Assembly (NCBI RefSeq): GCF_053078305.1
Contig: NZ_CP166879.1
Strand: one strand, 5' to 3'
DNA length: 64,000 nucleotides
Below the pieces are notes generated by a model. The model was not told the origin of the DNA and ran no database searches. It worked only from the letters and a program-made list of their open reading frames with translations. Below are positions 2,477 through 2,910 of the stretch, piece by piece. Positions within the stretch are counted from its first letter, which is position 1, and every line of letters begins with the position of its first letter. The position numbers and the translations under genes were made by a program.

Positions 2477-2494
2477 GCCTTCAGGACTGAAGGC
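2477..2494 (-). terminator. Rho-independent terminator stem after the small ORF; the U-tract is the A6 run at 2471-2476
   Basis: Inverted repeat GCCTTCAG.GACTGAAGGC followed on the minus strand by T6. Confidence 0.4.
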
Positions 2495-2678
2495 GTCTGT
2501 AACAACCGAACTGATAGTCTGCCAGACCCGCCATAACAAGCTGGGTCAGTATTAACTGGCAGCGTTCACGTGAAAGATAAGTATTCTGCGCAATCTCCCC
2601 GACTGTCGCCGGTTCGGTGGCACTTAATTCATTAAACACCACTCTGGCGGTTTCTGTCATATCCTGCTGTTTCAGCAT
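2481..2678 (-). CDS. Hypothetical small protein (65 aa) between two terminators downstream of the Q-like gene
   Basis: ORF with ATG at 2678 preceded by AAGGGA; ORF track gives the longer 2481..2714 version. Confidence 0.4.
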   Translation of the reverse strand: MLKQQDMTETARVVFNELSATEPATVGEIAQNTYLSRERCQLILTQLVMAGLADYQFGCYRRLQS

Positions 2679-2801
2679 GTCTTTTTCCCTTTTCCGGTTA
2701 ACGTGACACACCAATAACTCTTGTCAAAAAAGCCAGCAAGCTGAAAGACCGGTATTCACCACCACCAGCGCGTTTACTGTACTGACGAGATTTTCGGACA
2801 T

Positions 2802-2830
2802 AAAAAAAACCACCTGGCGGTGGTTTTTTC
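2802..2830 (-). terminator. Bidirectional rho-independent terminator; candidate tR'-like terminator of the late leader transcript
   Basis: Stem ACCACC / GGTGGT with loop TGGC, flanked by A8 and T6. Confidence 0.5.
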
Positions 2831-2839
2831 TTACTTTGC

Positions 2840-2910
2840 CATCGCGTACAAAATCGGCAAAATATCAGATTTATACGAAACATACGCGATTTAATTGACT
2901 TTTGCAATAT
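2840..2910 (-). promoter_or_regulatory. Candidate late promoter (pR'-like) with possible Q-utilisation region
   Basis: Minus-strand TTGCAA, 17-nt spacer, TATGTT just 3' of the Q-like gene; position inferred from lambdoid architecture. Confidence 0.3.

Follow-up and report, generated by a model that had tools for sequence, protein, structure and literature searches.

At the late promoter pR' of phage 82, transcription starts with AAA, and the initial transcribed region carries a near-consensus -10-like pause element with an extended -10, a GCC at +15 to +17 and an AT-rich stretch from +18 to +25, with a pause at the U at +25 (PMC5001585). In Shiga toxin (Stx) phages, the late promoter is constitutive and its transcription is terminated just downstream in lysogens, which yields an abundant short RNA called StxS (PMC7547250). 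As far as the part of the report considered here goes, M.EcoGII is a non-specific adenine methylase, which is active on its own in vitro and in vivo, is not expressed in the lysogen and is deleterious when constitutively expressed; the enzyme of phage 1720a-02 is very similar to it (PMC5778455). The passages of this report considered here do not mention an upstream small gene, terminators or a leader RNA. In this study, we analyzed a stretch of 64,000 nucleotides (nt) from NCBI RefSeq assembly GCF_053078305.1 (contig NZ_CP166879.1), which is called the window in its entire length. The late-regulatory region of an Escherichia coli lambdoid prophage is found within bases 1-8000 of the window on the minus strand; there, the gene of a Q antiterminator is followed by a small winged-helix gene, a DNA methyltransferase (methylase) gene and three tRNA genes. 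We put a probability of roughly 0.65 on the reading that this region consists of a phage 82-type late-control unit and a conserved cargo cassette, the methylase of which is held off in several layers. The late switch as such is ordinary lambdoid biology; the two-gene cargo is widespread and its proposed layered control is uncharacterised. Coordinates are positions in the 64,000-nt stretch, all features of the switch and of the cassette are located on the minus strand, and they are compiled in Table 1.

The Q protein matched Pfam family PF06323 with 281 bits (cutoff 25; E 7.8e-84) and PHROG 304 (E 2e-103), and it shares 64% of its residues with the Q protein of phage 434, which is annotated as Q82-like. 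An initial annotation of this DNA had placed a sigma70-like promoter behind the Q gene, and we recovered this promoter. Its -35 hexamer sits within the final Q codons, and both hexamers and their spacing (TTGCAA-17-TATGTT) are kept in three related phages (434, vB_EcoM-606R7, PPompW), the Q regions of which are only about 72-77% identical. A generic promoter scan of the window failed to call pR', and the promoter was read from the sequence. When +1 is placed seven bases past the -10 hexamer, transcription is predicted to start at A2872. From there, the initial transcript AAAUCUGAUAUUUUGCCGAUUUUGU reads AAA at 2872-2870, TGaTATTTT at 2867-2859, GCC at 2858-2856 and an AT-rich stretch down to U25 (2848). 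It can be seen that all five features of the phage 82 pR' stand at their predicted positions, the comparison being with the text description in PMC5001585 and not with the phage 82 sequence. These features argue for a transcript start at 2872 and a pause at 2848. Taken together, these data indicate that the late switch is very probably a Q/pR'/pause/tR' unit of the phage 82 type. The pR'/tR' late-leader reading of the initial annotation fits well with a Q protein of this family and with AAAUCUGAUAUUUUGCCGAUUUUGU. Its transcript start near 2850 has to be shifted, since the promoter is present but the predicted start is A2872 and position 2848 is the predicted pause site.

The strong bidirectional terminator that had been annotated at 2802-2830 (tR') is also there. 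Its core stem CCACC/GGTGG at 2810-2823 is extended by A/U pairs to 2804-2829 and is followed by eight U residues (U8), and an A-tract (A6) on the opposite side of the stem makes it bidirectional in form. The predicted leader of 78 nt folds at -26.3 kcal/mol (z -4.7), and termination within U8 is predicted to yield the RNA of about 70 nt. A stricter terminator scan returned 17 sites on the minus strand of the 64 kb, three of them within 1.9 kb at this locus. The chance probability of a terminator neighbour within 350 nt is about 0.09, which is mildly unlikely, and the argument for the terminators therefore rests on conservation and not on density. In fact, a terminator was found 104-150 nt upstream of the small open reading frame (ORF) in 26 of the 28 lineages compared. 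In five relatives (L007, L009, L019, L029, L046), which were compared with window positions 2803-2937, a distance of 700-1000 nt separates an 82-type pR'-tR' from the small gene downstream, and another copy of the terminator stands directly before this gene; the DNA inserted between the two terminators suggests that they act as module boundaries. Two candidates at tR' were rejected. StxS or another known small RNA was not supported by Rfam, where searches at E up to 1 gave weak chance matches only (STnc370, 30 bits; Phe_leader, 29 bits). A short ORF starting from the ATG at 2801-2799 meets a stop after eight codons in relatives that lack one A in the GAAAATC run.

The ORF of 65 amino acids (aa) lies between the two terminators as originally annotated, and it is a real gene. 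The ratio of nonsynonymous to synonymous changes (pN/pS) was 0.05-0.13 when compared with Salmonella, phiP27 and other copies, which indicates selection, and in 45 distinct E. coli-type coding sequences the variable sites were distributed as 3/6/28 over the three codon positions. Its ATG at 2678 is confirmed, because homologues start with MLKQQDMTE. In 23 of 28 species loci, which were drawn from one genome per species (Kluyvera, Klebsiella, Enterobacter, Citrobacter, Buttiauxella, Mixta, Erwinia, Hafnia, Proteus, Providencia), a DPPY methylase gene follows 132-154 nt after the small gene. The two genes stay together across Enterobacterales, also where identity drops to 42-50% and where the preceding Q gene belongs to any of three Pfam families. 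On this comparative evidence, the small gene and the methylase gene have become a fixed pair in evolution.

The query matched 2389 of 5426 complete E. coli genomes, with a maximum of 9 places in one genome, as well as at least 585 IMG/VR stretches. Stx phages carry the same cassette between Q and stx, and one genome paper notes both genes between Q and stx2e, as an annotation only. Stx2 phages share window positions 2300-2827 at about 94% and do not share the Q region (megablast), which puts the junction within tR'. In several loci, homology to the small-ORF module is lost at 2807-2829 on its upstream side and at 2441 or 2409 on its downstream side. Among 80 IMG/VR loci, the module was found after at least four upstream leader types (82-like, lambda-like and two others), each of which has a terminator at its end, about 125 nt ahead of the small ORF's ATG.

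The methylase gene is preceded by a structured leader, and here the comparison of sequences suggests two folds. The 146 nt from the second terminator to the methylase AUG fold at -60.9 kcal/mol (z -4.2), and both sequence and length of the leader are conserved across families. Fold A consists of P1 (UGGGC:GCCCA), a 12-bp hairpin P2 and the helices P3 and P4. In an unfitted MAFFT alignment, 89.7% of the cells were paired in this fold (29-45% with slid partners) and 11 pairs had changed on both sides (2-7 with slid partners). A covariance model of fold A matched the window only once (2328-2461, 126 bits) and also matched 34 other loci; on the alignment fitted to this model, 93% of the cells were paired and 15 pairs had changed on both sides, compared with 3-5. 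In P2, for example, GGCUGGUGGGUG/CACUCACCAGCC of E. coli corresponds to GACUGUAAAAGUG/CACUCUUACAGUC of Providencia; such compensation is also seen in the outer pair of P3, which occurs as U-A, C-G and A-U, and in P1, where one Mixta sequence has A-U in place of G-C. Fold B excludes fold A. It pairs AUGGGC with GCUCAU and GGAUCA..AAGC with GCUU..UGAUCC (P6), so that P6 takes up UGAUCC, the six bases just 5' of the methylase AUG. For this fold, 93.5% of the cells were paired, as compared with 29-40% with slid partners, and four pairs had changed on both sides. It is the fold of lower energy in most sequences, by 3.3 kcal/mol on average and by 10.6 kcal/mol in the window. Since fold B is able to form in the order of RNA synthesis, we infer that it is the default and that it limits methylase translation.

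These covariation data are helix-level counts judged against slid-partner controls, and the shuffle test is no probability. Helix-level counts were used because an all-against-all column covariation scan, which returned 256 candidate pairs, was swamped by clade structure and had to be dropped. The minimum-energy fold of the single E. coli sequence was rejected as sole leader model, since the comparative data back a second, exclusive fold, too. Even with permissive filters and E values of up to 1, Rfam 15 gave no match within 2328-2476, and the leader is thus a candidate for a new cis-regulatory RNA.

Chi sites (GCTGGTGG) were observed at 2762-2769 and 2445-2452 (minus-strand sense), where they flank the small ORF. 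The window contains nine Chi sites on the minus and three on the plus strand, and the base composition lets one expect about 0.7 per strand. The downstream site (2445-2452), which makes up the 5' arm of hairpin P2 in the leader, occurs in 18 of the 28 lineages by our own count, and several mosaic junctions coincide with it (2441). In another lineage (L091-93), an unrelated hairpin at the equivalent place also carries Chi.

The methylase itself shows the motif order of the beta class (DPPY...FxGxG), with DPPY at residues 34-37 and FMGSGS near residue 310, and it is 97% identical to the phage 1720a-02 enzyme. It is likely to be promiscuous, that is, a non-specific adenine methylase, and it would probably be harmful if expressed in the lysogen. 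A methylase promoter in CTGTGAAAATGGGCG (TGnGAAAAT) was rejected; the element is present in some lineages only and its start would fall inside the paired AUGGGC segment. In a chromosome that is 99.9% identical over the region, Q, the small gene, the methylase, the three tRNAs, a second methylase, an esterase, two small genes and a holin are encoded on one strand. On its way to the holin and lysis genes, the same transcript has to pass three terminators, and we infer from this, soundly although by analogy, that the cargo depends on Q. The cargo seems to be kept silent by the terminators and by the folded RNA leader.

According to the mechanism that we propose, pR' (2872) would fire constitutively and the polymerase would pause at +25 on the -10-like element, where Q would be loaded. 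Without Q, transcription would stop at tR', and in the lysogen only the RNA of about 70 nt would be made. After induction, Q would render the polymerase terminator-resistant, and it would pass tR', the hairpin at 2494-2477 and the third site at 967-950. This read-through would express the winged-helix gene, the methylase, the three tRNAs, the second methylase and then the lysis genes. Silencing of the methylase would involve tR', the 134-nt leader RNA and, as far as E. coli and some of its relatives are concerned, the second terminator. In its default, sequentially formed fold, the leader would pair the bases just 5' of the methylase AUG, so that translation would be held back. The winged-helix protein may act as a dedicated partner or regulator of the methylase, and we consider this specific role a tentative proposal. 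To the initial annotation, two consecutive terminators had suggested that expression of the methylase and of the tRNAs needs antitermination. The need as such stands as a well-founded expectation, with three terminators before the holin and with M.EcoGII being silent in lysogens according to the part of PMC5778455 considered here; the share of the second terminator is less secure, since it is limited to some lineages and has a stop codon in its hairpin.

A number of points weigh against this reading. The dependence of the cargo on Q is drawn by analogy. The set of likenesses to phage 82 does not include a Q binding element. The window enzyme is linked to M.EcoGII only through the 97%-identical enzyme of phage 1720a-02 and not by direct alignment. 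For the leader, folds A and B are mutually exclusive and both score well, which leaves the working fold undecided. Fold B is disfavoured in Hafnia and Erwinia, the covariation rests mainly on two or three clades, and the L091-93 lineage has the gene pair without the leader. Further points of this kind concern the second terminator and the small protein, and these are weighed together with the alternative explanations to which they belong.

The second terminator-like hairpin at 2477-2494 was confirmed and is followed by U6AU3. It reads GCCUUCA-GUCC-UGAAGGC, with a stem of 7 bp (4 GC pairs) and a tetraloop (-10.5 kcal/mol, z -2.45). The stop codon of the small ORF (TGA, 2483-2481) lies inside its 3' arm, and a terminator a few bp past a gene was found to be almost completely repressed by the translating ribosome, as stated in the part of PMC4824070 considered here. 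With the stop codon within the hairpin, the contribution of the second terminator and its value as a fail-safe are uncertain, and it would mainly halt untranslated read-through transcripts. Among the 28 lineages, the hairpin was detected in eight, to which a more distant lineage adds an analogous one. Salmonella and Kluyvera have a weak U-tract in their copies, and no such hairpin was found in Proteus, Providencia, Erwinia, Hafnia and Mixta. These findings on stop codon, ribosomal repression and patchy occurrence would also be explained if the hairpin were no working terminator in vivo. The ribosome would mask it because the stop codon lies inside, and it would be a 3' stabiliser of a processed message or a lineage-specific leftover. 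However, virtually all of the roughly 80 E. coli loci retain the 7-bp stem and U6, and changes there are confined to the loop. Moreover, strong U-tracts recur in Enterobacter mori (U8) and in one Citrobacter (U7), and L091-93 has a different, stronger hairpin with a U-tract at the same place. We regard a non-terminating hairpin as rather unlikely.

The statement of the initial annotation that the 65-aa product belongs to no recognised family did not hold. The protein matched PHROG 331 (E 1.8e-37), a narrow family with 66 representatives at E up to 0.001 among 1.84 billion, and many family members have been named 'TrmB family transcriptional regulator' by NCBI. No Pfam domain exceeded its cutoff (TrmB 19.1 vs 25.6 bits, MarR_2 15.9 vs 27, HTH_24 15.0 vs 21.9, with DprA_WH also below), and the NCBIfam search returned Lrs14 alone (13 bits, cutoff 90). 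The AlphaFold model (pLDDT, the predicted local distance difference test, 91.8) suggests a minimal winged helix, composed of H1-H2-H3 and a beta wing, as a single domain without a second domain for effector binding or dimerisation. Matches of this fold in PDB and among viral structures were generic winged helices only, namely OhrR/MarR and IclR N-domains, the N-terminal winged-helix dimerisation domains of small-molecule O-methyltransferases, the RNA-binding domain of SelB and Z-alpha-like viral proteins, and a sequence search of the family against PDB gave nothing meaningful. The modeled winged-helix fold does not settle the function of the protein. The generic character of the matches (template modeling score of the best ones 0.6-0.8, E about 1e-3) and the near-neutral charge by residue count belong to the points that weigh against our reading of the locus. 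The small protein might be unrelated to the methylase, for instance an anti-defence or host-directed factor, and the neighbourhood of the two genes would reflect shared descent of a late-region block. Such an explanation is in line with the generic fold, with the activity of M.EcoGII on its own in vitro and in vivo (PMC5778455, part considered) and with some loci that keep the small gene with another downstream gene or with a deleted methylase. It does not explain easily why the two genes stay together at 42-67% identity in Enterobacteriaceae, Morganellaceae, Erwiniaceae and Hafniaceae, why their pairing survives swapped upstream Q modules and downstream genes and why the spacer length is held at 132-154 nt. 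On balance, an unrelated protein appears improbable, and a partner or regulator of the methylase remains our tentative proposal.

In the 5' untranslated region (UTR) of the small ORF, a block of 38 nt (cTTGCTG-N10-cAGAGTTAtcTGTrTGTCA) is kept in all 28 lineages while its flanks diverge, and it may be an operator or an RNA motif. The block gave no good sigma-70 match, and a generic scan called no promoter-like site on the minus strand between 2800 and 2678. By eye, no palindrome was evident, and no repeat search was run on the block. A conserved hairpin in the block was rejected, since inspection by eye gave no consistent register. We also observed a weak G-U-rich hairpin (2726-2769, minus strand; GCUGGUGG...CUUGCUGGC, -9.9 kcal/mol, then U6) 55-90 nt before the small ORF, which is a possible third attenuator and which is present in Salmonella but not in distant lineages. 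One might also regard the small gene as a moron, which would be expressed independently of Q in the lysogen, e.g. as a repressor or host modulator, from its own promoter in the block and up to its own terminator (2494-2477); this is suggested by the mosaic unit of terminator, ORF and second terminator with its several junctions (2807-2829 and 2441/2409), by the terminator downstream (2467-2494), by the conservation of the block across genera and by a perfect TTGACA at 2722-2727, but it is hard to credit, as the scan found no promoter-like site, the TTGACA is CGACAA, AGACAA or ATACAA in most relatives and was rejected as an internal -35 with no usable -10, the conserved -10 candidate (TAnnnG) does not end in the essential T, and the small gene is nearly always tied to the methylase and does not move alone.

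If the proposal of layered control is taken one step further, the winged-helix protein, the terminator at the stop codon and the two-state leader might make up an as yet undescribed circuit that controls a promiscuous prophage methylase; we regard this as a doubtful extension. In this variant, transcription into the methylase would need either Q or a ribosome that finishes the small ORF, and methylase translation would need a leader that has been switched out of the start-burying fold. Candidates for the trigger are the winged-helix protein, metabolites like S-adenosylmethionine or S-adenosylhomocysteine (SAM/SAH), and the terminating ribosome. If this were true, the leader would represent a new class of cis-regulatory RNA, which many Stx phages would carry and, at most, about 44% of complete E. 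coli genomes, the share matched by the query. The position of the cassette between Q and the Shiga toxin genes of Stx phages implies that anything that alters read-through or RNA stability here would lie on the path to toxin and lysis expression. The cassette encodes a relative of M.EcoGII, which harms cells and is able to methylate adenines irrespective of their context. Partner protein and structured leader would offer handles on how prophages silence and then deploy such a methylase.

The second methyltransferase-like gene (1-897) carries an NPPF motif, is unrelated to the first one and bears the RefSeq name 'SAM-dependent DNA methyltransferase'. It follows the tRNA genes at the spot where Stx phages have their stx genes. 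The tRNA with the CAT anticodon (1156-1231) was called Met by ARAGORN, and RefSeq lists it as tRNA-Ile (ileZ-like) for the identical locus; the CAT/TCG/TCT trio also precedes stx2 in phiSTEC1575-Stx2k. A hok/sok type I toxin-antitoxin locus is present at 6557-6882 on the minus strand (Rfam sok, 121 bits, E 6e-28), and it overlaps a Hok-like ORF of 70 aa. A candidate type II toxin-antitoxin pair, formed by overlapping ORFs of 123 and 105 aa (toxin-like and helix-turn-helix, HTH), was observed at 5773-6454 on the plus strand, opposite to the late genes.

Table 1. Features of the late-control unit and of the cargo cassette in the window
Feature	Position	Strand	Remarks
DUF968/YdfU gene	4997-3948	minus	
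rusA	3935-3573	minus	directly upstream of Q
Q antiterminator gene, phage 82 family	2891-3580 (ATG, RefSeq start) or 3586 (GTG, longest ORF)	minus	
pR' late promoter	2879-2907	minus	-35 TTGCAA 2907-2902, 17-nt spacer, -10 TATGTT 2884-2879
Initial transcribed region with predicted sigma-dependent pause element	2848-2872	minus	conserved in phage alignment
tR' intrinsic terminator	2802-2829	minus	core hairpin 2823-2810, U8 2809-2802
Conserved 5' UTR block of the small ORF	2703-2740	minus	cTTGCTG-N10-cAGAGTTAtcTGTrTGTCA, 38 nt
65-aa winged-helix ORF	2678-2481	minus	
Second intrinsic terminator	2467-2494	minus	hairpin 2494-2477, U6AU3 2476-2467
Structured 5' leader of the methylase gene	2328-2461	minus	134 nt including AUG; helices P1-P4 or alternative fold with P6
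Beta-class N6/N4 DNA methyltransferase, M.EcoGII-like	1272-2330	minus	Pfam PF01555, E 7e-44
Three tRNA genes, anticodons CAT/TCG/TCT	982-1231	minus	same late cargo
Third terminator-like site	942-967	minus	GGCTCGCTTTTGTGGGCC then T6, after the tRNAs
Second methylase-like gene	start 897, window 1-897	minus	

When the locus is compared with the described systems, the phage 82 unit comes first. Both have a Q protein of PF06323, rusA directly upstream and a promoter that overlaps the end of Q, and they share the AAA start, the extended -10-like element at +6 to +14, GCC at +15 to +17, the AT-rich stretch to U25 and an intrinsic terminator soon after. However, the window DNA is only about 77% identical to the phage 82 Q fragment, and the terminator is followed by a cargo cassette here and not by lysis genes. 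The short leader RNA predicted here parallels StxS in its origin, and in both systems the genes placed between Q and the lysis genes, be it tRNAs, toxin or methylase, depend on Q, here by analogy. It differs in Q family and in leader sequence, and StxS is processed from a longer form, whereas the predicted RNA of about 70 nt would be made directly. M.EcoGII and M.EcoGI, as described in the part of PMC5778455 considered here, are beta-class enzymes of about 350 aa from E. coli prophages like the window enzyme. The controller (C) proteins of restriction-modification systems are also small proteins of the HTH class, encoded in the same orientation as, and immediately before, a methylase gene, the untimely expression of which matters. 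In contrast, C proteins are Xre-type HTH dimers that act on palindromic C-boxes and usually time the nuclease, whereas here we have a winged helix, no palindromic operator (as judged by eye) and no nuclease; the small protein resembles a C protein in position only. Finally, the methylase leader shares with translational locks in leader RNAs and with riboswitch-like 5' UTRs that it is a conserved 5' UTR of several helices, which show compensatory changes, and that it has two folds that exclude each other, the region beside the start codon being paired in one of them. The leader differs from these in having no Rfam match (E up to 1), no known ligand or trigger and no clear Shine-Dalgarno sequence to sequester.

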